This document shows positions 44,689-59,066 of a stretch of DNA of 64,000 nt, piece by piece. Each line of letters starts with the position of its first letter. Positions within the stretch are counted from its first letter, which is position 1. The notes below the pieces were generated by a model that ran no database searches, had not been told where the DNA came from, and was given only the letters and a program-made list of their open reading frames with translations. This DNA is from Candidatus Omnitrophota bacterium (GTDB taxonomy: Bacteria > Omnitrophota > Gorgyraeia > Zapsychrales > Zapsychraceae), in NCBI GenBank assembly GCA_020429915.1, contig JAGQKV010000002.1, forward strand, positions 128,061 to 192,060, written 5' to 3'. The translations under genes and the position numbers were made by a program.

Positions 44689-45207
44689 TCACTCCTCTGT
44701 TGATTTTAATAAATAGTGTCTTGCCATGTAATACCCCGTTGCCGCTGGCCATAGGATTGCTGCTCCATAGCAAATGGGATTAAATAGCCTATAGGATTCC
44801 ATGTGAGAGTGGATATATAATTTCATCATCAACTCCGATACGATCATCATCGGTGTGTTGATGATGATCAAGATGTGGTATTTCCACTCTGCATCGACGG
44901 AAAGCGGGTGAGGCGCGAGCATCAGCAGGATACCGCTCATAACCATGATGCCAAGCATCAAAACCAGGAATCGAACGGCAAATTTCCATTTGAAACATGC
45001 GGCAACGCAGGCGAAGCACAGAAATAGCTGGTACAAGCTGCCGATGGTATTGGCACATGCGCGTGTGTACTCCCGGTCCCTGTTCAGACATCCTTCAAAC
45101 CACGGTAGCCAGTCGTCTATGTCCGTTCCCAGGTAGCGCACCTTCAATCCCACAAAAGAGGCACAAATAAGCCAGCCGACCATGTTTTGCGTGCGGAGTT
45201 TCATCAA
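44689..45207 (-). CDS. Hypothetical polytopic membrane protein co-transcribed with ispG
   Basis: 172 aa with about 5 TM helices. Start overlaps the ispG stop as ATGA. Local GC is clearly lower than in the flanks. Confidence 0.4.
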   Translation of the reverse strand: MMKLRTQNMVGWLICASFVGLKVRYLGTDIDDWLPWFEGCLNRDREYTRACANTIGSLYQLFLCFACVAACFKWKFAVRFLVLMLGIMVMSGILLMLAPHPLSVDAEWKYHILIIINTPMMIVSELMMKLYIHSHMESYRLFNPICYGAAILWPAATGYYMARHYLLKSTEE

Positions 45208-46436
45208 TATTGATTCTGAATACCACCGAACTTGGCTTCGATGTGCTTCTCAAGAATAGCAATGAATTCATCCTTGATGTTCTCACCCCGTAGTGTCTTG
45301 GTTTTTTCACCGTTTTCGTAGACCGGGGCGATCGGTTCTTCCGAGGTGCCCGGCAGACTGATCCCGATATCGGCATGGCGGCTCTCGCCGGGGCCGTTGA
45401 CGACGCAGCCCATCACCGCGATTTTCATTTTCTCCACGCCGGGAAATTCCTTTTTCCAGGCCGGCATCTTGCGTTCGATATGTTCGTTGATGTCCCGGGC
45501 CAGGATCTGAAAATAATTACTGCTGGTCCGTCCGCAGCCCGGGCAGCTGGTGACGCTGGGTTTGAAATACCGCAGTCCCAGCGCCTGGAGCAAATGTTTG
45601 CAGACCTCCACCTCGCGTGAACGGGGGATGTCCGGTTGAGGCGTCAGCGAGACGCGGATGGTGTCGCCGATCCCCTGTTGCAGTAATATGCCCAGGGCCG
45701 CGGCGCTGGCGGCAATCCCCTGGACCTGGGCGCCCGCCTCCGTGAGCCCCAAGTGGAGCGCGTAGTCGCATTGTTGCGCAAGGCGGTGGTACACGGTGAC
45801 CATATCTTGAAGGATCGACATCTTCACGCTCAGCACGATCCGGTCGGGACCGAGGCCGAGCTCTTCCGCCAGCCGCGCGCTGGCCAGGGCGCTGTGGATC
45901 ATGGCGGCGTAGGTGACTTCCTTAAAGTCTTTCGGTTCGGGAAAGGCGGCGTTTTCGTCCATGAGCCGGGTGAGCAGTTCCTGGTCGAGTGACCCCCAGT
46001 TCACCCCGATACGCACCGGTTTCCCGTGCTTAATGGCGACCCGGATGATTTGGGCAAAGTTATCGTCATGACGCTCGCCCTTGCCCACATTTCCCGGATT
46101 GATCCGGTATTTGCTCAGGGCGGCCGCGCACTCGGGGTGTTTGGTGAGCAGCGTGTGGCCGTTGAAGTGGAAATCTCCGATAATGGGGGCCTGGTACCCG
46201 CCCTCCCGCAGACGCTTGATGATGCCGGGCACGGCTTGGGCCGCGGCGTCATCGTTCACGGTCCAGCGCACCAACTGGGAACCGGCCTCGATCAGCTCGA
46301 CCGTCTGCCGGTATGTCGCCTCTTCGTTTGCGGTCGGGGTATCAGTCATGGACTGGACCACCACCGGGTGGCCGCCGCCGACCGGCACGCCGCCGATGTC
46401 GACTGCCTGAGATTGCCGCCTGGGTTTCATTTCCAT
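45204..46436 (-). CDS. ispG: 4-hydroxy-3-methylbut-2-en-1-yl diphosphate synthase (GcpE)
   Basis: 410 aa. VVVQSMTDT and the CPGCGRTSS cluster-ligand motif. Confidence 0.9.
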   Translation of the reverse strand: MEMKPRRQSQAVDIGGVPVGGGHPVVVQSMTDTPTANEEATYRQTVELIEAGSQLVRWTVNDDAAAQAVPGIIKRLREGGYQAPIIGDFHFNGHTLLTKHPECAAALSKYRINPGNVGKGERHDDNFAQIIRVAIKHGKPVRIGVNWGSLDQELLTRLMDENAAFPEPKDFKEVTYAAMIHSALASARLAEELGLGPDRIVLSVKMSILQDMVTVYHRLAQQCDYALHLGLTEAGAQVQGIAASAAALGILLQQGIGDTIRVSLTPQPDIPRSREVEVCKHLLQALGLRYFKPSVTSCPGCGRTSSNYFQILARDINEHIERKMPAWKKEFPGVEKMKIAVMGCVVNGPGESRHADIGISLPGTSEEPIAPVYENGEKTKTLRGENIKDEFIAILEKHIEAKFGGIQNQY

Positions 46437-46618
46437 AGGAATAATATGATTATCTGTATGAGTATTGTAAGATATTTACACGAGGAAAAATCATGATATA
46501 ATGACACAATTCCAGGGCAATATCAAGCCTGTCCGCAGGACGAGCGTCCCGTTTCGGCGGGACTTGCGATAACCGAGTAACAGCTGGGGGTGTCCCCCCG
46601 CCTTCTCCAAGGAAACTT

Positions 46619-47551
46619 ATGGATATCTATCTAGCCAAAACCCAGGGGTTTTGCGCGGGTGTTTCATTTGCCATCGAGATCGTTGATGAGGCCCTGCGCC
46701 GGTTCGGAGCCCCGCTGTATGTGTATCACGAAATCGTGCACAACACTTATGTGGTCAACCAGTTCCGCGACAAAGGTGTGATTTTTGTCGAGCGCATCCA
46801 GGACGTGCCGGAAGGGTCCCGGATCATCTTTTCCGCGCACGGAGTCCCGCCCACGGTCATCGAGCAAGCCGAGGCGCGCCGGCTGCAGTTTGTCGACGCT
46901 ACCTGCCCGTTGGTGACCAAGGTCCATAATGAGGCCACCAAGTTTTCCAATCATCACTACGAAACGGTGCTGATCGGCCATCGCGGGCATCAGGAACTCA
47001 TCGGGACCGCCGGGTATGTAGATCCGCAATATCTGCATATCGTCGAGGACGAGGAAGACATCGATGCCCTCAACATCGATCCCCAGGCGCCGGTGGCCTT
47101 CATTACCCAAACGACCTTGTCGGTCGATGACACCGAGGCGATGGTCGAGAAGCTCAAACAAAAATTTCCGAACCTCAATGCCCCGCCGCGCTCCGATCTT
47201 TGTTACGCGACGCAAAACCGGCAGGATTCGGTCAAGGAACTGGCCAAGGACTGCGATGTGATCATCATCTGCGGATCGCCCAATAGTTCCAACAGCAACC
47301 GTCTGCGCGAGACCGGCGAAAAAGCGGGCTGTCCCAGCTACATAATCGACACCGCCGACGAGCTGGACTTGTCCGTTCTCAACGGAAAGAAGAAAGTCGG
47401 CATCAGCTCGGGCGCCTCGGTGCCGCGCATTATCGTGGACGATTTGGTCGCCCGCATACAGCAGCGGCATCCGGACAGCCGGGTGCATGAGTTCGACAAT
47501 CCTGAGAAAAATATCGTCTTTGCCCTGCCCAAGGAGCTGCGGGAGAATTAA
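46619..47551 (+). CDS. ispH: 4-hydroxy-3-methylbut-2-enyl diphosphate reductase (LytB)
   Basis: 310 aa. GFCAGV, HEIVHN and TCPLV motifs carrying the three cluster cysteines. Confidence 0.9.
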   Translation: MDIYLAKTQGFCAGVSFAIEIVDEALRRFGAPLYVYHEIVHNTYVVNQFRDKGVIFVERIQDVPEGSRIIFSAHGVPPTVIEQAEARRLQFVDATCPLVTKVHNEATKFSNHHYETVLIGHRGHQELIGTAGYVDPQYLHIVEDEEDIDALNIDPQAPVAFITQTTLSVDDTEAMVEKLKQKFPNLNAPPRSDLCYATQNRQDSVKELAKDCDVIIICGSPNSSNSNRLRETGEKAGCPSYIIDTADELDLSVLNGKKKVGISSGASVPRIIVDDLVARIQQRHPDSRVHEFDNPEKNIVFALPKELREN

Positions 47552-47554
47552 GCC

Positions 47555-47809
47555 ATGGCCAAGCTGATCATCGACGGCAGTGAGCATGATGTGCAGGACG
47601 GCGCCTTGATCGACGAGATCTGCGAAAATGAAGGCGTTCCTTTCAGCTGCAATTCCGGGGTGTGCGGGACCTGTCAAATCGAGGTCCTTGAGGGACAGGA
47701 GCATCTCAACGATTTGAATGACGAAGAGCGTGAACTGGGTATGGACCGGAATAACCGGCTCGGCTGCCAATGCCGCATCATGGGCGGTACCGTGAAGGTG
47801 ACCTACTAA
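47555..47809 (+). CDS. fdx: [2Fe-2S] ferredoxin
   Basis: 84 aa. C-x4-C-x2-C...C pattern (SCNSGVCGTC ... LGCQC). Starts 4 nt after the ispH stop. Confidence 0.75.
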   Translation: MAKLIIDGSEHDVQDGALIDEICENEGVPFSCNSGVCGTCQIEVLEGQEHLNDLNDEERELGMDRNNRLGCQCRIMGGTVKVTY

Positions 47810-47810
47810 A

Positions 47811-48563
47811 ATGCACTTCTCCCTCTCCGATCAAACTCTTAATCCTATACAGCTCGCGGAGTGTCTCGCCTCCGATGAGTGCGGCGCGCTGGCGACCTTT
47901 GCGGGTACGGTCCGCAATCGTAATCTTGATCGTGAGGTGACCGCCCTGGAGTACGAGGCCTATGCCGATCTTTGCGCGGTGGAGATGGAACGACTTTTTG
48001 AGGAAGTCCGCTCAAGGTTCGCGATTGCCGATGTCCGCGTCTGTCATCGCACGGGGCGCCTGGCGGTCGGTGAAACGGCCGTCTGGATCGGTGTGACCGC
48101 GGGCCACCGTGCGGCCGCCTTTGACGCGTGCCGGTATCTTATCGACGAGCTTAAACAGCGGCTGCCGATCTGGAAAAAGGAATACTACCGCGACGGGGAT
48201 TCCGGCTGGATCGGATGCGCACCGGAAGCGGGTACGGTCCCCCCGGCGGCAGATACCCTCGAAAAGGACGTGCGGCAGCTTTCCGCCCGGCAATTATCGG
48301 AGGCGGTCCTGGTGGACGTCCGGGAACCGATTGAACGGATGATGGCGCCGTTATCCGGCATCGATTGCCTGGAGATTCCTTATGGAAGTTTTCCGTGTGA
48401 AGAGGAACTCTTCCGGGATGGCCGCGAATACCTGCTTTTTTGCGCTCAGGGTATCCGTTCCCTGCAGGCGGTGCGGTTGCTGCGGGAAGCCGGGATCAGG
48501 AATGCCTATTCCCTGAACAATACCTTTGGTGAAATCAAGGCGGCGGTGAATGCCCCCCGCTGA
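47811..48563 (+). CDS. moaE: Molybdopterin synthase catalytic subunit MoaE fused to a C-terminal rhodanese domain
   Basis: Residues 1-150 align with MoaE (ATFAGTVRN, GVTAGHRAAAFDACRYLIDELKQRLPIWKKE). Residues 160-250 are a rhodanese fold with active-site Cys (LLFCAQGIRS). Confidence 0.7.
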   Translation: MHFSLSDQTLNPIQLAECLASDECGALATFAGTVRNRNLDREVTALEYEAYADLCAVEMERLFEEVRSRFAIADVRVCHRTGRLAVGETAVWIGVTAGHRAAAFDACRYLIDELKQRLPIWKKEYYRDGDSGWIGCAPEAGTVPPAADTLEKDVRQLSARQLSEAVLVDVREPIERMMAPLSGIDCLEIPYGSFPCEEELFRDGREYLLFCAQGIRSLQAVRLLREAGIRNAYSLNNTFGEIKAAVNAPR

Positions 48564-49533
48564 TCAGTCCAAGGATGCCGCTGCCTTTATCCCGCCTGCC
48601 GGCATCCCGCTCCTACCTGAACGTCAATTATCCCGATATACAACTTTTCAATTAGGCGGCCCGGCCCGCGGTGTCCTGTCGTGCCGGACCCCTGCCGAGC
48701 TCAGGCAGGCGGTCCTGGCCCTGACCTCCCAAGGCTGTCCGTTTATCCTGATCGGCGGCGGGTCGAACCTGGTCGTTTCCGATCAGGGCCTCGAATGTTA
48801 CGTGATCCGCTATTTTAGCGAAGAGCCGGTTCTCCGGCTGGAGGAGGATGTGCTGACAGTCTCCGGCAGCACCCGGCTGGATGACGCCGTGGCCTATGCG
48901 GCCTGTCACGGCTACGAAGGGCTTAATTATGCCAGCGGCATTCCCGGTACGGTCGGCGGTGCGGTGGTCGGCAATGCGGGCGCCTTCGGCCGGCAGGTAG
49001 GTGATGTCTTGAGTTCGGCCCTGCTCATTCATCCTGACGGGACACAACGCCGGGTCGGAGCTCAGGAGCTTGATTTTCAGTACCGGCATTCCGCTTTGAA
49101 GGAATCCCGCGAGATTGTCGCGGAAGCGGCGTTCGCGCTGCGGTCCGCCGATGCCGCGGGGCTCCAAAAAGAACGCGCAGAGATCTTGAAGATCAGGGCC
49201 GGAAAGCATCCGGATCTGTCTCAAAACCCCTGCGCGGGAAGTTTCTTTCGCAATATTGAACCCACCTCTCAGGCCGGGCGCCGCCAGGCGGCCGGGTGGT
49301 TTCTCGATCAGGCCGGAGGAAAGGCCTTGTCTTACGGCGGTGCCGCTATCTATCCGAAGCACGCGAATATCATCGTGAAGGGGCCGGACTGCAAGGCCCA
49401 GGATGTTTATGAGCTTTCACGCATGATGGCGCGTCTCGCCAAAGATCACTTCAATCTGGATCTCGTACGCGAGGTTCGCTTCGTCGGTGATTTCGACGGC
49501 GCAGAGCCGAGCGAGCACACCCTGATCTGGTAA
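48550..49533 (+). CDS. murB: UDP-N-acetylenolpyruvoylglucosamine reductase
   Basis: 327 aa. TTFQLGGPA FAD-binding start, GGGSNL, and C-terminal MurB domain. Confidence 0.8.
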   Translation: MPPADQSKDAAAFIPPAGIPLLPERQLSRYTTFQLGGPARGVLSCRTPAELRQAVLALTSQGCPFILIGGGSNLVVSDQGLECYVIRYFSEEPVLRLEEDVLTVSGSTRLDDAVAYAACHGYEGLNYASGIPGTVGGAVVGNAGAFGRQVGDVLSSALLIHPDGTQRRVGAQELDFQYRHSALKESREIVAEAAFALRSADAAGLQKERAEILKIRAGKHPDLSQNPCAGSFFRNIEPTSQAGRRQAAGWFLDQAGGKALSYGGAAIYPKHANIIVKGPDCKAQDVYELSRMMARLAKDHFNLDLVREVRFVGDFDGAEPSEHTLIW

Positions 49534-49537
49534 ACCT

Positions 49538-50626
49538 TTACTTCGTATCTTTCAGCTTCTTTTGCAGCATGCGCTTCTGGTCTTCATAGAAGCGGTCCTG
49601 TTCTTGGATGAACTCGGTCCGGTCTGAGCTCAGCTTCTCGAGAAGCTTTTTTTCTTCCATCTTTTGCTGCTCTACCGCTTCACGCAGGTCTTCCACGCGT
49701 TTGTTGCGGCGGGAAAGGAGCTTTTCAAAGTCTTGATAGTACTCCTTTTCCTTTTCGTAGAACATTTCGCGCTTGAGTTTCATCGCGTCCTGCTTCTTGG
49801 TCAGCTCAGCCAATTCTTGTTCCATTTTGGCCTTGGCTTCTTCATAGTCGGACTTGACCTTGGCGTGCTCCATTTTGAGATTCTTGAGTTCGCGTTCCTG
49901 GTCACGTTCCAGGTGTTCCTTCTCTTTTTTGAAATCGTCCTCGGCAGACTTGAGCTGCTTGGTGTACTGCATGCGCTCGGTCTTGAATTTTTCCTTGGCT
50001 TCTTCCATGGCCTTCATTTCCGCGGCATGTTCGCTTTTGGCGCGCGACATTTCTTCCTTGTGCGCGGCCATCATGGCGTTGGTTTCGCTTTCGACGCGGG
50101 CGCGTGATTCATTTTGCTCCTTCGCGAGGTTGGCCTTAAGAGTTTCGAGTTCCGTCTCGATCTTTTTGCGTTCCGCTTCGAGGTCTTTTTCGACCTGCTT
50201 TTTCTGCTCGGTCAATGAGCGAAGTTCGGCGCGGGTGTTGCGTTCGAGTTCTTCGCGTTCCGCCTCGATTTCGGCCTTCATTTTGTTCTTTTCTTCCATC
50301 AGGCGCTTTTCCGCGGCTTTGTTAATTTCCTGCTGAGCGCGGATCTTGTCGATGACCTTGGCTTGTTCTGCCTTGAGTTTGTCATAATCGGCGCGGAGTT
50401 TTTCATTTTCCAGATAGAGTTCGCGGTTCATATCGCGAACCTTTGAGTTGTCCTTCTTCTGGATCGTCCGTTCTTCCGTGTCGATGTCGTTCTGAATTCC
50501 GGAAATCCCCTTGTAAGCCTTCATCTGCTCACGGTATAGGGAATCATCCGCTGTGTACCCCGGTCGCGCGACGGCTACAGCCAAGACGGCGACAACTGCT
50601 ACGATAAAGTTCATCCTGCGTTTCAT
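49538..50626 (-). CDS. Secreted, highly charged coiled-coil protein (hypothetical)
   Basis: Signal peptide MKRRMNFIVAVVAVLAVAVA followed by about 340 aa of E/K/R-rich heptad-like sequence. Confidence 0.5.
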   Translation of the reverse strand: MKRRMNFIVAVVAVLAVAVARPGYTADDSLYREQMKAYKGISGIQNDIDTEERTIQKKDNSKVRDMNRELYLENEKLRADYDKLKAEQAKVIDKIRAQQEINKAAEKRLMEEKNKMKAEIEAEREELERNTRAELRSLTEQKKQVEKDLEAERKKIETELETLKANLAKEQNESRARVESETNAMMAAHKEEMSRAKSEHAAEMKAMEEAKEKFKTERMQYTKQLKSAEDDFKKEKEHLERDQERELKNLKMEHAKVKSDYEEAKAKMEQELAELTKKQDAMKLKREMFYEKEKEYYQDFEKLLSRRNKRVEDLREAVEQQKMEEKKLLEKLSSDRTEFIQEQDRFYEDQKRMLQKKLKDTK

Positions 50627-50766
50627 GATAGCTACCTCTCCTCCTCCAGTTAAATTAAACATATGGGTAAATATAACACATATTCACGCAGTAGCAAGTT
50701 TTTTAAATGATGTAACTTATTCCAACTATTATGCTTAGTATAAAAGTACGGGCAGGAAGGCGATGA

Positions 50767-51783
50767 CTAACCGCCGATTTGGTACATTTCCAGCTTTTTT
50801 TGAGTATTTTGATCCGCCCCCGGCCCGGCCCGCAGTTCGGAATAACGGTCCGATCGCCCCTGCCAAGTCTGCCCGATCAGTTCCCGCAGACGATTATCCG
50901 TAGCCCCGCCGCGCAGCTCGTCGCGCAGATTGACGCCTCCCTCGGCGAACAGGCACGTGACCAGCCGTCCGTCCGTGGTGATCCGTAAGCGGGTGCATGA
51001 ACGGCAAAACGGTTGGCTCACGGAGGAGATAAAACCGATCTCTCCCTGCCCGTCCCGGTAAGCATAGCGTTCGGCCACCTCACCGAAGTAGTTGCGGTCC
51101 AGCGCCTGCAGCGGATAGCGCCGGTCGATGAGTGTCAGGATCTTGGCCGACGGCACTACGTAGCGTCGGTCCCAGTGATTGCACGTCCCGACATCCATGT
51201 ACTCAATGAATCGCAGGATGCAACCGGTTCCCCGGAAATAATCAACCAGATCGAGGATGCTGCCGTCGTTGACCCCTTTCTGGATGACGACATTGATCTT
51301 GATCGATGCGATGCCGGAGTCCCTCGCGGCGGAAATCCCGTCGAGGACTGTTGTCAGAGGTGTTTGGGTGCCGCCCATGTCGCGAAAGATGCGCGAATCC
51401 AGCGTATCCAGACTGACCGTCAGCCGGCTGAGTCCCGCCGCCTTAAGCTGTCCGGCGTAACGGGAGAGCAACGAGCCGTTGGTCGTCAAGGCGATATCCG
51501 GGGCGGGTGTCAGCGCGTTCAGGTTCCGGACCAAATCCGGGATGTCCGGACGCAACAAAGGTTCGCCGCCGGTGAGTCGGACCTTTTGCACCCCGCAGGT
51601 CAGCAGCACGCGCGCCAGCCGCAGGATTTCCTCGCCCGTCAGCCATTCGCGTTTGGCGAGAAACGCGTATTCCTTTTCCGGCTGCGCGGGCATGCAATAC
51701 TGGCAGCGAAAGTTGCAGCGATCGATGACCGAGACACGGACATCCTGCAACGGCCGGTTAAATTGATCGGTAATGGTGTTCAT
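50767..51783 (-). CDS. moaA: GTP 3',8-cyclase (radical SAM)
   Basis: 338 aa. CNFRCQYC radical-SAM cluster motif and C-terminal second-cluster cysteines. Confidence 0.9.
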   Translation of the reverse strand: MNTITDQFNRPLQDVRVSVIDRCNFRCQYCMPAQPEKEYAFLAKREWLTGEEILRLARVLLTCGVQKVRLTGGEPLLRPDIPDLVRNLNALTPAPDIALTTNGSLLSRYAGQLKAAGLSRLTVSLDTLDSRIFRDMGGTQTPLTTVLDGISAARDSGIASIKINVVIQKGVNDGSILDLVDYFRGTGCILRFIEYMDVGTCNHWDRRYVVPSAKILTLIDRRYPLQALDRNYFGEVAERYAYRDGQGEIGFISSVSQPFCRSCTRLRITTDGRLVTCLFAEGGVNLRDELRGGATDNRLRELIGQTWQGRSDRYSELRAGPGADQNTQKKLEMYQIGG

Positions 51784-51786
51784 GAA

Positions 51787-52242
51787 TTACTCCGTCGATA
51801 CTTGCGGTAAGCTGGCCCATGCGGCCCGGGCCGTGTGCCACGGCAGCGTGGCGCATGGCACGCGTGAAGGGAATTCCCTGATTCCTTCAAAGACATTCAA
51901 TTCCCCAAGAAGTTGCTCGTCGATGACAGTCGTCCTTCGGGGCTTGACCAAGCGCTCGAATTCTGTCATCAACGCTTCGAAAGCCGGCGCGTCCATTCCC
52001 GTAAGCCGGTCCGTAAGCAGGGATGCCGAACATGTACACACCGCGCAGCAGTCGCCTTCGAATGAGGCGGCCGTGACGGTCCCGTCACGCAGACTGAAAT
52101 ATACAGTCACCGCGTCGCCGCACACCGGGTTATAACCGCGCGCCTGATGAGTGGCCTCTGCCAAAGGGCCGTAATTGTGCGGATCACGGTTATGTGCGAT
52201 CACCACCTGTTGGTAGAGTCGGGATATGTCCTTGTCCGTCAT
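51787..52242 (-). CDS. sufU: SUF-type Fe-S assembly sulfur-acceptor/scaffold protein SufU (NifU-like N-domain)
   Basis: LYQQVVIAHNRDPHNYG, NPVCGD and GDCCAVC motifs. True start MTDKDISRLY overlaps the sufS stop as ATGA. The ORF-track 5' extension is non-homologous. Confidence 0.75.
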   Translation of the reverse strand: MTDKDISRLYQQVVIAHNRDPHNYGPLAEATHQARGYNPVCGDAVTVYFSLRDGTVTAASFEGDCCAVCTCSASLLTDRLTGMDAPAFEALMTEFERLVKPRRTTVIDEQLLGELNVFEGIREFPSRVPCATLPWHTARAAWASLPQVSTE

Positions 52243-52243
52243 G

Positions 52244-53479
52244 TCAGTGGAAAATATCGATCGCCTTGCGGACCGCTTCGGCCAGGATATCCATCTCCTC
52301 GATTGTGTTGTACAACGAAACCGATGCCCGCGAGGTCGCGCTGATCTCGAAATGATCCATGACGGGTTGCGTGCAGTGATGCCCCGTACGGATGGCCACA
52401 CCTTGTTTGTCGACAAGCGTTCCCATGTCGTGGGCGTGAACGTCCGGATGGACGAACGAGATCACCGATGTTTTCTCGCGTGCCCGTCCGATGATACGCA
52501 CGCCGGGAATTTCCTCGAGTTTGGCCGTGGCGTAACGTAGCAACTCTTGTCGGTGCGGATGCGTGTTGGGTAAACCGATTTCCGCGACATAATCGATGGC
52601 GGCGCCGAGGCCGATCACGTCCGCAATGTTCGGTGTGCCTGCCTCGAATTTGTAGGGAAGGCTGTTGAAGGTCGTCTTGGCGAAGCTGACGCTTTCGATC
52701 ATGTCGCCGCCGCCGCGATACGGTGGCATCCTGTTGAGCAGGTCCTTTTTGCCGTACAACACTCCGACACCCGTCGGGCCGAAGAGTTTATGCCCTGAAA
52801 AAGCCAGAAAGTCGCAATCCAAATCCTGCACATCGATCGGCGCATAACTGACGGCCTGGGCCGCGTCGATCAATACCGGTGTCCCCTGTGCGCGGGCCGC
52901 GCCGATCATCTCGCGGACCGGATTGATCGTGCCCAGCGAGTTCGAGATATAAACCGCCGCGACCAATTTGGTTTTCGGACCGAGCAGCGCGCGGTAGGCG
53001 TCCATATCGAGTTCGCCGTCTTCGTTGAACGGGACAACTTTTAGGACACATTTCTTCTCTTCGCAAAGCATCTGCCAGGGAACGATATTCGAGTGATGCT
53101 CCATCTCGGTGATGAGGATTTCGTCTCCGGCGCCGATAAAGGCGCGTCCGAAGCATTGCGCCACGAGGTTGATCGAATCCGTGGTCCCGCCCGTCAGGAG
53201 GATCTCCTCACGGGAAGCCGCATTCAGAAACCGCCGGATCTTCTCCCGGGCGCCTTCATAGGCTGCTGTGGCGCGTTCGCTCAGCGTGTGCACCCCGCGG
53301 TGCACGTTGGCGGTTTCATGCCGGTAGTGATGTTCAATGGCCTCGATGACGCGGTTGGGTTTGAGCGTCGTGGCGGCATTGTCCAGATACACCAAAGGCT
53401 TGCCGTTGACCTGTTCGGCCAGAATCGGAAAGTCGCGGCGCACCTTGGAGACGTCGAATGTGGCGGCGGTATGGTCCAT
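52244..53479 (-). CDS. sufS: Cysteine desulfurase SufS
   Basis: 411 aa class-V aminotransferase. PLP Lys in SGHKLFGPTG and active-site Cys in RTGHHCTQP. Confidence 0.9.
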   Translation of the reverse strand: MDHTAATFDVSKVRRDFPILAEQVNGKPLVYLDNAATTLKPNRVIEAIEHHYRHETANVHRGVHTLSERATAAYEGAREKIRRFLNAASREEILLTGGTTDSINLVAQCFGRAFIGAGDEILITEMEHHSNIVPWQMLCEEKKCVLKVVPFNEDGELDMDAYRALLGPKTKLVAAVYISNSLGTINPVREMIGAARAQGTPVLIDAAQAVSYAPIDVQDLDCDFLAFSGHKLFGPTGVGVLYGKKDLLNRMPPYRGGGDMIESVSFAKTTFNSLPYKFEAGTPNIADVIGLGAAIDYVAEIGLPNTHPHRQELLRYATAKLEEIPGVRIIGRAREKTSVISFVHPDVHAHDMGTLVDKQGVAIRTGHHCTQPVMDHFEISATSRASVSLYNTIEEMDILAEAVRKAIDIFH

Positions 53480-53486
53480 GAATCCC

Positions 53487-54809
53487 TTATGTCAGATGGG
53501 CAAAGGCCGGTTCGATAAGCGAGTGCATCTTGCGGTTGATCTCGTCGTTCTGCACGTGGTTGAGCAGATCATCCACAAATCCGCGCGCCAGCATGCTGCG
53601 GGCGGCGTGCCTTCCTATCCCCCGGGTTTGCAGGTAAAACAACTCGTCCTCCTCCAACTGACCGATGGTGGCGCCATGTGTGCAGCGCACGTCGTCGGCA
53701 AAGATCTCGAGCTGCGGTTTGGTGTCGACCCTGCAGGCGGTTCCCAACAGCAGATTCTTGTTCAGCTGATAGGAATTGGTCTGCTGCGCGATGTCTTTGA
53801 CAAAAATCTTGCCATTGAATACGGCGCGGGCCGATTCGTTGAGGATCCCCTTGTACAGCTGATTGCTCGTGCAATTGGGGAAACGGTGGTCGACCGAGGT
53901 GTGGTTGTCGATGTGCTGGCTGCCGTAGTTCACGTAGAGTCCGTTGAGGGTTGAATCGATGCCTTCCCCGTTGAGAATGATGTCGAGATTGTTTCGGTTC
54001 AAGGCCGATCCGGTCATGACCGAGATGCTGTCGAAATGCGAATCACGCTCCTGCCACACACGGGTATTATTGATGTGATAAGCCTTCAGGCTTTCGTGCT
54101 GGGTCTTCGTGTAGTGCAGAATGCCGTTGGCGGCCAAATAGATGTCGGTGAGCGCGTTGGTGAAATAGGTGATTTCCTGGTCGAAGCAAATATGGCTTTC
54201 CAGGACCGTGAACTCACAGGATGGTCGGCCGATGATGAGCGTGCGCGGGAGCGACAAGGCCTCGCCGTTGGAGGCGCTGGTCACGTGAACGATATGGACA
54301 TAGTCCTCCACGTGCGTATTGGCGGCTGCTTCGATGTAGACACCGTTATCAGTCAGCGCGGTGTTCAGGGCCGCGAACGAAGACGCCTTGGCCGTGTCAT
54401 AACGCGAGATTAACTCCTTGATCTGGTCGCCGTGACTTTGCACCGCCTTGTCGAGGGTCAGGACCGTCAATCCGGCCGGGATGTCGGTCAGCTCGGAAAG
54501 TTCCGGACTGAAGCGGCCGTTCAGGAAGGTCACCCTGATTTTGTCGGTGGCGCAGTAGTCGGCAAATTCGGCGCGCTCTTTCAACTCGCCGGCGGTGTTC
54601 AGTTGAAATTTTTGTTTGGTGAGCGCGGTGATGTTGGTGTATTTCCATTCCTCGTCTTTGACCGTCGGGATGCCGGCTTCCTGAAAACGTGACAGGCTGG
54701 CCTGCCGCAGGGTCTTCAACCAGCCCACGCTTTCGTCCGCCAGACGCTGGTCGGCCAGGCCCGCGAAATTGTCGATAAAGTCGGTGGTTTGTATCGTTGT
54801 ATTACTCAT
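53487..54809 (-). CDS. sufD: Fe-S cluster assembly protein SufD
   Basis: 440 aa. C-terminal SufBD beta-helix motif (EIFADDVRCTHGATIGQLEEDELFYLQTRGI). Confidence 0.85.
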   Translation of the reverse strand: MSNTTIQTTDFIDNFAGLADQRLADESVGWLKTLRQASLSRFQEAGIPTVKDEEWKYTNITALTKQKFQLNTAGELKERAEFADYCATDKIRVTFLNGRFSPELSELTDIPAGLTVLTLDKAVQSHGDQIKELISRYDTAKASSFAALNTALTDNGVYIEAAANTHVEDYVHIVHVTSASNGEALSLPRTLIIGRPSCEFTVLESHICFDQEITYFTNALTDIYLAANGILHYTKTQHESLKAYHINNTRVWQERDSHFDSISVMTGSALNRNNLDIILNGEGIDSTLNGLYVNYGSQHIDNHTSVDHRFPNCTSNQLYKGILNESARAVFNGKIFVKDIAQQTNSYQLNKNLLLGTACRVDTKPQLEIFADDVRCTHGATIGQLEEDELFYLQTRGIGRHAARSMLARGFVDDLLNHVQNDEINRKMHSLIEPAFAHLT

Positions 54810-54828
54810 GGGATTGTGTCCTCAATGC

Positions 54829-55587
54829 TTATTTGATTAACCAATCGTAGCCTTTTTCCTCGACCGCCAGGGCCAGTTCCTTGCCTTCCGAACGGATGAT
54901 CTTGCCGTTAACCAGAATATGCACGAAGTCCGGCACGATGTAGTTCAGCAGACGCTGGTAATGGGTGATCACCAGGGTGGCGTTGTCCTTGCTTTTCAGT
55001 TTGTTGACGCCGTGGGCCACGATCTTCATCGAATCGATGTCCAGACCCGAGTCGGTTTCGTCGAGTACGGAAAAGCGCGGGTTGAGTATGGCCATCTGCA
55101 GGATCTCGTTGCGCTTCTTTTCCCCTCCGGAAAAGTCCACATTAAGCGGACGCTGGGTGAACTTGTCGTCCATCTCCAGCAATTCCAGTTTGGTCTTCAT
55201 GTGTTCGTTGAAGGCGACCGGGTCCATTTCGTCGACCCCCTGATGGCGGCAGACTTCGTTGAAGGCGGCGCGCAAAAACACGCTGGTATTCACTCCGGGG
55301 ATTTCCACCGGATACTGGAACGCCAGAAATATCCCCTCCCGGGCGCGTTCCTCCGGCTCCAGTTCGAGAATATTGATCTTCTTGAAGTTCACTTCGTAAT
55401 TGATTTCACCGTCTGTGACCTCGTATTCCGGATGGCCGGCGATGACCTTGGCCAGCGTGCTCTTGCCGGATCCGTTAGGACCCATGATGGCGTGTACTTC
55501 TCCCGGATTGATGGTCAGGTCGATGCCCTTGATGATTTCGGTATCGCTGTCGACGACTTTGACGTGGAGGTTCTTGATTTCGATCAT
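54829..55587 (-). CDS. sufC: Fe-S cluster assembly ATPase SufC
   Basis: 252 aa. Walker A GPNGSGKST, ABC signature FSGGEKKR. Confidence 0.95.
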   Translation of the reverse strand: MIEIKNLHVKVVDSDTEIIKGIDLTINPGEVHAIMGPNGSGKSTLAKVIAGHPEYEVTDGEINYEVNFKKINILELEPEERAREGIFLAFQYPVEIPGVNTSVFLRAAFNEVCRHQGVDEMDPVAFNEHMKTKLELLEMDDKFTQRPLNVDFSGGEKKRNEILQMAILNPRFSVLDETDSGLDIDSMKIVAHGVNKLKSKDNATLVITHYQRLLNYIVPDFVHILVNGKIIRSEGKELALAVEEKGYDWLIK

Positions 55588-55646
55588 GATTCGTATCCTT
55601 TACTATTTGATGTGACAGCAAAGGGCGGCTGCGCCCTCTGCGTAAT

Positions 55647-57137
55647 TTATCCGACACTTCCCTCGAGTTTCATTTCCAGCAGCTTGACAGCCTCCACGGC
55701 AAACTCGAGAGGCAATTCCTTGAAGACTTCCTTGCAGAAGCCGTTAATGATCAAACTGATCGACGCCTCCAAGTCGAGACCGCGGCTTTGCAGGTAAAAT
55801 AACTGCTCCGCGTTGATCTTGGAGGTGGATGCCTCATGTTCCATGGTCGCCGAATTATTGTTGATTTCGATATAGGGGAACGTGTTGGCCGCGCACTTGT
55901 TCCCGACCAGCATCGAATCGCACTGTGAGAAATTACGGGCGTTGTCCGCACTCGGCAAGACTTTTACCAGCCCCCGATAGGTATTGTTGGACTCATCGGT
56001 AGAAATCCCCTTGGACACGATGGTGCTGGTGGTATTTTTACCGATGTGGATCATCTTCGTACCGGTATCGGCCTGCATGCGGTGATTGGTCAGCGCCACC
56101 GAGTAAAACTCGCCAACGGACTTGTCGCCCTGCAGGATGACGCTCGGATACTTCCATGTGATGGCTGATCCGGCCTCGACCTGGGTCCAGGAGATCTTGG
56201 ATTTAAAACCGGCGCACTTGCCGCGCTTGGTTACGAAGTTATAAACCCCGCCTTTGCCGTCCTTGTCTCCGGAATACCAGTTTTGCACTGTGGAATACTT
56301 GATTTCTGCGTTGTCCAGGGCGATCAGTTCGACCACCGCCGCGTGCAGTTGGTTTTCGTCGCGGCTCGGTGCCGTGCAACCTTCCAGATAACTGACGTAG
56401 CTGCTGTCCTCCGCGATGATCAACGTGCGTTCGAACTGTCCGGTACCGGCCGAATTGATACGGAAATAAGTCGACAGTTCCATGGGGCAACGCACCCCCT
56501 TGGGAATAAAACAGAACGAACCGTCGCTGAAGACCGCCGAGTTCATGGCGGCGAAGAAATTGTCCGTGTACGGCACGACCGAACCCATATACTTCTTGAC
56601 CAGTTCGGGATGGTGTTCGATGGCCTCGCTGATCGAACAGAAGATCACGCCGACCTTTTCCAGTTCCGACTGATGGGTCGTTCCCACCGAAACGCTGTCG
56701 AACACGGCATCCACGGCCACTCCGGACAGGCGTTTCTGTTCGCTTAAGGGAATGCCGAGTTTTTCGAAGGTCTTGAGCAGCTCAGGGTCGACTTCGTCCA
56801 GACTCTTGGGGCCCTCCTTTGTGCCCTTGGGGGCCGTCCAGTAGCTGAGGGCCTGGTAATCAATCGGACCGTAGTTGAAGTTCGGCCAGTGCGGCTCCTT
56901 CATTTGAGACCAATGCCGGTAGGCCTTCAGTCGCCATTCCCGCAACCAGTCCGGTTCCTTCTTGATGTCGCAGATTTGATGGATGGTCTTTTCCGTCAGG
57001 CCCGGTTCGAGGCGGTCCGTTTCGATATCGGTATACCACCCGTATTTGTAATCGCGGGATGAGAGCGCGTTTTCTTCGATGGTGCGTTCATTAAGCAGTT
57101 TGTCTTCAACAGCTTTGTTCATGGGTTCATCCTTCAT
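55647..57137 (-). CDS. sufB: Fe-S cluster assembly protein SufB
   Basis: SufB/SufD family with the conserved C-terminal region. Probable start [15 protein letters not shown] overlapping the rrf2 stop. The ORF-track start at 57284 adds about 49 non-homologous residues. Confidence 0.9.
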
Positions 57138-57601
57138 TGTGAGTTTGATTCCTGAAGTTGTTCCTTTTGCCGGATCTTCTTTTCCTTGGCATGCTTGGTC
57201 TGGATCAGGTCGCCGATCATAACGGTATCGAAAACGACGTTGATCTGCTCGTTCAACGTCAGCATCGGCGAGATAATATGGCACGTTTGACTGATATCAC
57301 AGGTCGAGTAATCTCCGTGAAAGCAATTGGCGATCTCGATCGGTCCGACGATTAACAGCGACAATTCGCGCAACGACAGGGTGTTGAGGTCCTTGACGAT
57401 CAGATATCCCCCCCGTGCGCCCTGTTCGGCCTGGAGGATCCCGTTTTGAGACAGAATCTGCAAGACCCGAGACGTCGGATCGAACGGGGTCCGGTAGATA
57501 TCACATATCTCCTTGGCCGAAGTCAGCTGCCCGGGCTTCTTGTGGCTCATGTGCTTGAGGGCTATCAGTGCGTATTCTATTTTTCTGTTGATCTTAAACA
57601 T
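57134..57601 (-). CDS. Rrf2-family transcriptional regulator (IscR/SufR-like) with a cysteine cluster
   Basis: 155 aa. N-terminal wHTH ([18 protein letters not shown]) and C-x7-C-x5-C ([18 protein letters not shown]) like the IscR cluster ligands. First gene of the suf operon. Confidence 0.8.
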
Positions 57602-58496: not shown

Positions 58497-59066
58497 CTAG
58501 TAGACGTCACCCAGTTCGACTACGATCGCCGGATCGTACTGATCGCGCAGGATATTTTCGATGGCCTTCATGGTGCCCATCGAGGCGCTGGGACAGGATC
58601 CGCACGCGCCTTGGTAAAAGACCTTGAGAATCTTGTTGTCGTAACTCATCAGCTGGATGTCACCACCGTCCATTTGTAAGGCCGGGCGGACGGTTTGGTC
58701 CAGAATGGCATTGATCTGGTCCATCTCGGGTGAACTCTGTGCCTCGACTTTATTTTGGGTCTCCGGTTCCACCACCTGAAAATTCGGGTCGTGCTCCGCC
58801 GCTTTCTGCAGAATGGTGAGGCGGATCTTCTCTTCCAGCTCGTCCCAGTCGGCGGATCCGTCTTGGGTGACCGTAATGTAGTTATCGAAGAAATAAACTT
58901 CCTGGACCGCCGGATTGATATCGAAAATGTTCCGGGCCAACGGGTTATGTTCGGTGCCGGCGCCTTTTTTATAGGTATAGTTGCCCTCGGCCTTGACCGG
59001 GATATTGAGCACAAACTTCAGGGCGTTGGGATTGGGGGTGCTTTGGATCATTAAGCGGATGTCCAT
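58497..59066 (-). CDS. nfu: NFU1-type Fe-S cluster scaffold (Nfu N-terminal domain plus NifU C-terminal CxxC domain)
   Basis: 189 aa. N-terminal Nfu_N-like domain (TPNPNALKF) and C-terminal GACGSCPSA. Confidence 0.8.
   Translation of the reverse strand: MDIRLMIQSTPNPNALKFVLNIPVKAEGNYTYKKGAGTEHNPLARNIFDINPAVQEVYFFDNYITVTQDGSADWDELEEKIRLTILQKAAEHDPNFQVVEPETQNKVEAQSSPEMDQINAILDQTVRPALQMDGGDIQLMSYDNKILKVFYQGACGSCPSASMGTMKAIENILRDQYDPAIVVELGDVY

Follow-up and report, generated by a model that had tools for sequence, protein, structure and literature searches.

Why should the large subunit of molybdopterin (MPT) synthase carry a sulfurtransferase domain of its own? The question is raised by a 250-aa protein of an uncultured Candidatus Omnitrophota bacterium, encoded directly downstream of ispH and of a small ferredoxin gene, in which MoaE is followed by what appears to be a rhodanese domain. 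The gene lies in a stretch of 64,000 nt (contig JAGQKV010000002.1 of assembly GCA_020429915.1, positions 128,061 to 192,060), hereafter the window, and all plain coordinates given below are positions in that stretch; labels of the form L001 denote related loci in this analysis and labels of the form P0009 the database proteins compared. Our preferred reading, to which we would give a probability of roughly 55 to 60%, is that the protein is an MPT synthase large subunit with a tethered sulfur-donor domain of the MoeB/MOCS3 type, descended by loss of the activating-enzyme (E1) part from a triple fusion of MoaE, E1 and rhodanese (MoaE::ThiF::Rhd), and acting by a mechanism that we infer below.

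The N-terminal 135 aa are assigned, on sequence and on the modelled fold, to MoaE, the large catalytic subunit of MPT synthase. In the Pfam scan PF02391 covers aa 8-117 of the fusion protein with 123 bits against a cut-off of 23.4, and sequence matches in the PDB to the MoaE proteins of Aquifex, M. tuberculosis, human and E. coli were obtained at 1e-25 to 1e-28. The full-length equivalog model NF007959 remains below its cut-off (101 against 175), as expected because the protein is diverged and has two domains. In the AlphaFold model of the 250-aa protein (overall pLDDT 83) the N-domain reaches a pLDDT of about 90 and matches the MoaE fold of 9jbd, 6jc0, 5mpo, 1fm0_E and others (E 1e-13 to 1e-15, TM 0.8-0.9). 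Five residues, R35, H99, R100, K115 and K122, are invariant among ten homologues; we take these to be the active-site residues R39, H103, R104, K119 and K126 of the E. coli enzyme, a mapping derived from the shift of +4 between query 21-134 and chain 25-137 in the match to 1fm0_E and not from a printed alignment.

The C-terminal 100 aa are read, again from sequence and model, as a rhodanese-like domain with an intact catalytic Cys loop, and sulfurtransferase activity is predicted. Besides the Pfam rhodanese family, domain-level NCBIfam matches were found to the C-terminal rhodanese of ThiI (36 bits) and to the rhodanese parts of the MoeB/MoeZ models, and the C-terminal half of the AlphaFold model matches rhodanese structures (3gk5, TM 0.72). 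The PDB sequence match 8a56, the rhodanese domain of CoA-persulfide reductase (E 2.7e-5), sets C211-A-Q-G-I-R-S opposite C-H-S-G-L-R-S. Ten full-length homologues, with an overall identity of 39-74%, all retain C211, G214, R216 and S217, and the loop motif C-x-x-G-x-R/K-S/T is found in 87 of the 104 rhodanese domains of fusion proteins, the Cys being absent in only two. A preliminary description of this DNA had claimed a MoaE domain joined to a rhodanese domain with a catalytic Cys, and both halves of that claim are borne out: the N-domain is MoaE, and the Cys loop has been retained.

The same description had regarded the pairing as anomalous, on the ground that rhodanese domains are normally attached to MoeB/MOCS3 and not to MoaE. 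This stands insofar as the direct fusion is rare, but the domain itself is of the MoeB type and relatives encode it together with MoaE and MoeB in one chain. If the members of its own small clade are set aside, the window rhodanese is most similar to the C-terminal domains found in the MoaE::ThiF::Rhd proteins of L010 (45%), L012 and L055, and by this sequence kinship it is classed as a MoeB/MOCS3-type C-terminal domain. No match to the ThiF-family E1 domain (PF00899) was found in the window protein with either Pfam or NCBIfam. The protein therefore does not belong to the MoeB/MOCS3 adenylyltransferase-sulfurtransferase family, though its rhodanese type does.

How widespread such fusions are was assessed by searching a profile of ten fusions against 1.84 billion representative proteins and classifying the 150 best hits, with domains assigned by searching the retrieved proteins with hidden Markov models that we built from alignment A1. 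Among these best 150 there are 74 MoaE::ThiF::Rhd proteins (about 470-570 aa), 19 MoaE::ThiF proteins (several truncated), 13 MoaE::Rhd proteins and 40 plain MoaE proteins. The 74 triple fusions (P0123-P0265) represent as many clusters at 50% identity and derive from Omnitrophota, a Micavibrio metagenome-assembled genome (MAG; MAM34451.1) and metagenomes. Within Omnitrophota they are single chains of about 500-560 aa (L010:6283-7824, which is MoaE, ThiF and Rhodanese by Pfam, L012:1096-2637, L055:6569-8107 and 11 more loci). MoaE::Rhd was also found in Armatimonadota, namely in Fimbriimonadaceae and in Candidatus Nitrosymbiomonas proteolyticus (BBO23767.1).

In the databases these proteins carry generic names such as 'MoaE', 'ThiF family adenylyltransferase' and 'adenylyltransferase/sulfurtransferase'. 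The identical protein at NCBI (100%) is called 'MAG: molybdenum cofactor biosynthesis protein MoaE [Candidatus Omnitrophica bacterium]', and the name at JGI is 'molybdopterin synthase catalytic subunit/rhodanese-related sulfurtransferase'. The lack of the E1 block is not due to faulty assembly, for the identical protein recurs on 49 contigs and its architecture is shared by three diverged orthologues, of 74, 60 and 56% identity. Full-text literature searches of incomplete coverage returned no description of MoaE-rhodanese or MoaE-MoeB-rhodanese fusions, which is absence of evidence only. The direct MoaE::Rhd fusion is thus rare, as the preliminary description had supposed, but not unique, being present under generic names for two phyla, whereas the family in which MoaE is joined to a MoeB-type E1 and rhodanese is much larger and apparently undescribed.

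The larger family also bears on where the E1-less form came from. Set against the triple fusions of related genomes, the window protein can be aligned from one end to the other except for one clean gap of about 260 aa at the ThiF position (L010 and L012), and it shares with them the clade-specific rhodanese tail 'SLNNTFxxI(K/R)', at which other members have Gly-Gly. P0009, a truncated MoaE::ThiF protein (67%), is among the nearest MoaE domains to that of the window. The trees are simple and the domains short; in the neighbour-joining tree of IspH, taken as a species proxy, the window and L001 (a 74% orthologue) are sister to L011, which has MoaE alone, and then to L010, a triple fusion, and all four are nested inside a triple-fusion clade (L013, L016, L018 and L055). 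A second, independent MoaE::Rhd clade (L002, L024 and L004) is sister in this tree to loci with split MoaE and rhodanese genes. The most economical reading of these comparisons, and one that we consider quite likely, is that the ancestor of the window protein was a MoaE::MoeB::Rhd chain from which the E1 block was deleted in frame. Both domains have been under purifying selection since that loss (dN/dS against L001 is 0.18 for MoaE and 0.14 for rhodanese, with dS about 1). MoaE::Rhd is accordingly a derived state in a variable series (MoaE; MoaE with a separate Rhd; MoaE::Rhd; MoaE::MoeB::Rhd) and not an isolated invention.

That series can be followed at the locus itself. A genome scan with the ferredoxin as bait yielded 80 loci, nearly all labelled Omnitrophota or 'uncultured Planctomycetales', and the order ispG (opposite strand), ispH, fer2, moaE ... 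murB is kept in 77 of them. Locus states were counted by analysis of the open reading frames (ORFs) in the 74 loci whose moaE reading frame is complete: MoaE stands alone after the ferredoxin gene in 42, it is accompanied by a separate rhodanese gene abutting or overlapping the moaE stop codon in 16, a single ORF encodes MoaE::ThiF::Rhd in 14, and MoaE::Rhd is fused directly in two. No hidden ThiF or rhodanese was found between moaE and murB of the MoaE-only loci, the genes there being instead for a PduO-type cobalamin adenosyltransferase and for a DUF4346 pterin-binding protein. Architecture calls are unreliable for L036, L039, L029 and L082, in which ispG, ispH, moaE or murB occurs in several tblastn pieces in different frames; the breaks are probably frameshifts, or errors of sequencing in assemblies made from long reads or at low coverage. 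Where the two genes are split, the rhodanese start often shows an ATGA-type 4-nt overlap with the moaE stop (L014, L022, L042, L069, L070, L085, L089 and nine others). One base change would suffice to join the two genes, and this helps to account for the repeated switching between split and fused forms.

Such easy interconversion of fused and split forms, with the moaE stop and the rhodanese start overlapping or abutting, can also be read in favor of an accident of operon structure. A general sulfurtransferase, engaged in tRNA thiolation, thiamine synthesis or persulfide handling, would then have been joined to moaE by loss of a stop codon and would have no role specific to the molybdenum cofactor (Moco). 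The 42 related loci without rhodanese fit this explanation, as does the service of the E1-rhodanese proteins MOCS3 and MoeZR in more than one pathway (PMC5372717; PMC3227635). We nevertheless regard it as unlikely, given that the MoaE-rhodanese pairing persists among proteins as deeply diverged as about 40% identity, spans at least two phyla and is found in dedicated Moco operons beside moaD, that the related triple fusions include the MoaD-activating E1 type, and that the rhodanese domain evolves as slowly as MoaE.

A Moco-specific role directs attention to moaD and moeB, neither of which the preliminary description had seen in the window, and our searches agree with it. With E. coli MoaD, MoeB and ThiS as tblastn queries, the best E-value in the 64 kb was 0.05 or worse, and an Omnitrophota MoaD and an Omnitrophota ThiF domain likewise gave nothing better than 0.05. 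Apart from moaA, no window ORF of at least 50 aa ends in Gly-Gly. Pfam scans of 47 window ORFs (7 + 10 + 30) contained no ThiS or ThiF, and the scanned ORFs are housekeeping only, comprising type II/IV secretion, uvrA, pantothenate, lysine and arginine synthesis, fatty-acid synthesis, suf and nfu. Only one of the 80 Omnitrophota loci, L055, has moaD within 6 kb: a true moaD (ThiS, 1e-17) lies there between the ferredoxin gene and the triple fusion. Other than this intact gene, no moaD remnants were found in the 150-200-nt ferredoxin-moaE gaps of relatives.

In four other lineages moaD is located directly upstream of a MoaE fusion or the triple form (L006, L008, L090 and L055). The order in L006 is moaC, a mobA-like gene, moaD and moaE::Rhd; in L008 moaE::Rhd directly follows moaD; and the complete Armatimonadota genome CP129494.1 has the order moaA, moaC::moaB, moeA, moaD, moaE::Rhd. 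This adjacency supports the view that the rhodanese domain serves MoaD sulfuration, and to this extent the direct persulfide relay to MoaD proposed in the preliminary description gains ground. For a relay that bypasses the E1, nothing was found in support.

Such a bypass has some circumstantial appeal. The tethered persulfide could in principle sulfurate un-adenylated MoaD, or even cyclic pyranopterin monophosphate directly, within the MoaE active site, so that MoeB, and in the extreme MoaD, would be unneeded; it would, if true, be a shortened dithiolene-sulfur relay unlike any described MPT synthase. The 64 kb devoid of moaD and moeB, the single Omnitrophota locus with a moaD nearby, the continued selection on the rhodanese after E1 loss and the lack of moeB from the CP129494.1 operon would all be in keeping with it. 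We consider it very improbable. Since moaD has been retained beside the fusion in three other lineages (L006, L008 and Armatimonadota), MoaD appears still to be used there, which argues against an E1-independent route, and the MoaE residues for the MoaD-tail region are unchanged. The gene moeB usually lies outside moa operons, so its local absence says little, and we know of no chemistry by which a thiocarboxylate is formed without activation of the carboxylate.

According to the tethered-donor reading that we prefer, a cysteine desulfurase would load a persulfide on Cys211, the candidate source being SufS, which is encoded 3.7 kb away and whose link to the fusion protein is presumed. A separately encoded E1 of the MoeB/ThiF type would adenylate the C-terminal Gly of a separately encoded MoaD, and the Cys211 persulfide would attack the MoaD acyl-adenylate to give the MoaD thiocarboxylate. 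This would then be passed to the MoaE domain of the same chain for the conversion of cyclic pyranopterin monophosphate, made through MoaA (gene 2 kb away), to MPT, with the tether of about 15 residues holding the sulfur donor beside the sulfur consumer. The proposed step from Cys211 to adenylated MoaD is modelled on MOCS3, whose rhodanese-like domain carries the persulfide that directly supplies the sulfur of the MOCS2A thiocarboxylate; IscS and TusA fill this role in E. coli (PMC5372717).

Several points weigh against this reading. The PF00581 match (aa 163-244, 22.2 bits) sits exactly on the gathering score of the family. No moaD and no E1 gene is present in the 64-kb window, and both partners, which the mechanism requires, are assumed. 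Rhodanese is dispensable at the locus in many relatives, as the MoaE-only loci indicate, and the AlphaFold model offers no confident inter-domain geometry (pTM 0.51). SufS-type desulfurases usually hand sulfur to SufU or SufE, which makes the named persulfide source a guess. Crystal structures of MoaD-MoaE and MoaD-MoeB have the same MoaD tail inserted into either partner. Where the process is known, MoaD receives its sulfur on MoeB and not on MoaE (PMC5372717). Taken together, sulfuration on MoeB and a tail that enters either partner mean that a rhodanese tethered to MoaE is not obviously optimally placed.

The ferredoxin gene between ispH and the fusion raises a further question, that of the partner it serves. 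Its 84-aa product matches PF00111 with 46 bits against a cut-off of 21; Cys32, Cys37, Cys40, Cys71 and Cys73 are invariant in six orthologues and include the C-x4-C-x2-C...C signature, so that cluster binding is predicted. The best solved relative is 9i2a, 'Ferredoxin-4' (E 2e-14), and the NCBIfam scores of the 84-aa protein are all far under the cut-offs, with no curated equivalog. The gene stands between ispH and moaE in 77 of the 80 loci, the only two loci without ispH or moaE being L083 (contig end) and L088 (a paralogue), and in the bait scan this position was seen almost only in Omnitrophota-labelled genomes.

As the 84-aa protein sits where moaD lies elsewhere, a disguised MoaD was considered and rejected: Pfam assigns it to Fer2 and not to ThiS, the five Cys are invariant, the protein ends in ...VKVTY, its internal Gly-Gly is not kept (MRG, KSG and KCG in orthologues), and in L055 a true moaD is present alongside the ferredoxin gene.

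The preliminary description had taken the ferredoxin as a dedicated donor for IspH. It is a genuine [2Fe-2S] ferredoxin, but the data do not single out IspH, given that over 77 loci the median gap is 12 nt between ferredoxin and moaE (often overlapping) against 11 nt between ferredoxin and ispH, and with equal gaps synteny cannot assign the partner. IspG and the radical-SAM enzyme MoaA, both encoded nearby, also need low-potential electrons. Donation to IspH remains a reasonable idea: ferredoxins and flavodoxins are established reductants of IspG and IspH (PMC12605070), and IspG orthologues require taxon-specific carriers (PMC8896826). The most economical interpretation is that of a shared low-potential donor for the local Fe-S enzymes (IspH, IspG and possibly MoaA), as opposed to a dedicated part of the MoaE module.

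A role with the Moco genes in place of IspH, either as the reductant of MoaA or as a partner of MoaE::Rhd, appears rather doubtful to us. The gene does pack as closely to moaE as to ispH, the sole local moaD, that of L055, sits between the ferredoxin gene and moaE, and a paralogue of 52% identity in L088 belongs to a cluster resembling molybdate uptake, which is a weak hint. On the other hand, MoaE::Rhd occurs without the ferredoxin in Armatimonadota, L006 and L008, and the fusion therefore does not need it; the established ferredoxin or flavodoxin clients are IspH and IspG, as cited above. The L088 link is a single case, in which the binding protein, a candidate ModA, is assigned at the level of its family, SBP_bac_11. 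To our knowledge, no MoaE reaction requires electrons. The cluster in question (L088:5412-9332, from the same MAG as L073) consists of TetR, Fer2, a PNPOx-like gene, an Alginate_exp porin, the SBP_bac_11 binding protein and a TOBE protein, and looks like a molybdate or tungstate uptake locus.

The features of the locus are collected in Table 1. As the preliminary description had it, the genes are tightly packed: both the ORF list and the DNA place the ferredoxin ATG 4 nt past the final base of the ispH stop codon and the fusion-gene ATG 2 nt past the final base of the ferredoxin stop codon. The murB start overlaps the fusion gene by 14 nt, and murB is kept 3' of moaE in related loci as well. 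No terminator-like site was found between the ispH promoter-like site and the end of murB. Because of this tight spacing, the strong promoter-like site 5' of ispH and the lack of a terminator-like site before the murB end, ispH, the ferredoxin gene, moaE::rhodanese and murB most likely form a single operon with murB as its last gene.

Table 1. Features of the moaE::rhodanese locus and its surroundings, in window positions.
Feature	Position	Strand	Basis and remarks
ispG (GcpE), divergent from ispH	45204..46436	-	Pfam GcpE 1e-111; NF001540 above cut-off
Promoter-like site 5' of ispH	46475..46502	+	TTTACA, 16-nt spacer, TATAAT with upstream TG; 11/12 consensus matches; consensus scan only
ispH (LytB), 4-hydroxy-3-methylbut-2-enyl diphosphate reductase, [4Fe-4S] enzyme	46619..47551	+	310 aa; Pfam LYTB 8e-92; TIGR00216 8e-96, above cut-off
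[2Fe-2S] ferredoxin (Fer2) gene	47555..47809	+	84 aa; PF00111 4e-12
moaE::rhodanese fusion gene	47811..48563	+	250 aa; PF02391 and PF00581
MoaE domain (predicted), aa 1-135	47811..48215	+	PF02391 9e-36; sequence and fold matches to MoaE/MOCS2B crystal structures
Flexible linker (predicted), aa 136-150	48216-48260	+	pLDDT below 50 (AlphaFold model)
Rhodanese-like domain (predicted), aa 151-250	48261..48560	+	PF00581 at gathering score, NCBIfam sub-regions, fold, PDB sequence match
Predicted rhodanese active-site loop C211-A-Q-G-I-R-S217	48441-48461	+	Alignment with homologues and PDB match
murB	48550..49533	+	Pfam FAD_binding_4 and MurB_C; TIGR00179 above cut-off
moaA (GTP 3',8-cyclase, radical SAM), last gene of suf operon	50767..51783	-	TIGR02666 2e-112, above cut-off
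sufU	about 51787-52242	-	Pfam NifU_N 1e-14; start set by analogy with 151-aa gene in L001
sufS cysteine desulfurase	52244-53479	-	Pfam Aminotran_5 8e-145

On the opposite strand, 2.2 kb downstream, lies a sufB-sufC-sufD-sufS-sufU-moaA operon (50767-57284), in which moaA begins 3 nt past the sufU stop codon; moaA has the same suf-operon position in L001, L002 and L004. An nfu gene is found at 58497-59066; with ispG, ispH, the ferredoxin gene and suf-moaA it makes up a region in which Fe-S assembly genes are grouped with genes of enzymes that are Fe-S clients. Between murB and moaA (49538-50662, minus strand) a 374-aa Lys/Glu-rich protein is encoded, predicted to be a coiled coil with a hydrophobic N-terminal segment; it has no significant Pfam family, and a 362-aa gene, also without a Pfam match, occupies the same position in L001. 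Directly 3' of ispG, and overlapping its stop codon by 4 nt, there is a hydrophobic ORF of 172 aa (44689-45207, minus strand) without a Pfam match, in whose place L001 has a 140-aa gene that likewise has none.

In many of the related loci the space between moaE and murB is occupied by a gene for a PduO-type cob(I)alamin adenosyltransferase, in some cases along with a 120-aa DUF4346 'pterin-binding' gene (L015:6859-7778, L049:6715-7638, L052, L064 and L084; L002:3439-3993 and L004:2485-3048). The DUF4346 call was made with Pfam on L049, and the adenosyltransferase call follows the Pfam label, Cob_adeno_trans, that the corresponding genes of L002 and L004 carry. The window has neither a PduO-type nor a DUF4346 gene.

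Among the closest known systems are the MoaE::MoeB(ThiF)::rhodanese proteins (L010, L012, L055 and MAM34451.1), which have the same domains and align over the full length, and which in Omnitrophota also occupy the same locus (ispH, fer2, moaE..., murB); they differ in the approximately 260 additional residues of a ThiF-family E1 between the domains. With MOCS3, Uba4 and the mycobacterial MoeZR-MoeBR the window protein shares the C-x-x-G-x-R-S loop, the C-terminal position of the rhodanese in a Moco sulfur-transfer protein and the presumed function of persulfide donor to MoaD/MOCS2A. Unlike these, it has no E1 (ThiF) domain and bears the rhodanese on MoaE, the consumer of the thiocarboxylate, and not on the activating enzyme. 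It resembles the canonical MoaD2-MoaE2 synthase (E. coli 1fm0; human MOCS2A/MOCS2B 5mpo) in the fold and sequence of MoaE and in the invariant Arg, His-Arg and Lys, whereas the additional C-terminal rhodanese and a moaD that does not adjoin set it apart. The linear MoaD-MoaE fusions of M. tuberculosis (MoaX) and Deinococcus are likewise Rosetta-stone fusions of MoaE with a sulfur-transfer partner (PMC4326299; PMC11237513). In that case, however, MoaE is joined to the sulfur carrier itself, which has to be released by cleavage before it can function, while the partner in the window protein would be the upstream sulfur donor, placed at the C terminus, for which cleavage is in principle unneeded. 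As for the ferredoxin, it is similar to YfaE-like and plant-type small [2Fe-2S] ferredoxins in its Fer2 signature, its size of about 84 aa and its Pfam and PDB matches, and it departs from them in belonging to no curated equivalog and in its fixed position between ispH and moaE.

As natural evidence of functional partnership, gene fusions carry much weight. The route by which sulfur reaches MoaD varies among organisms: E. coli uses IscS and TusA, and humans use the rhodanese domain of MOCS3. The joining of MoaE to an E1 and a rhodanese, or to a rhodanese alone, suggests that MoaD activation, sulfuration and use may take place on one scaffold. No established pathway principle is changed by this, as the window protein represents a rare, uncharacterized arrangement of well-known parts, and for annotation it serves as a warning that such proteins are currently labelled just 'MoaE' or 'ThiF family'. 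The E1-less form provides a simple test case for whether a rhodanese can act while beside MoaE, and given that these proteins are small, soluble-looking and present in complete Armatimonadota genomes, they are experimentally approachable. For research on Moco sulfur transfer, the more useful result is the triple-fusion family together with its repeated loss of domains.

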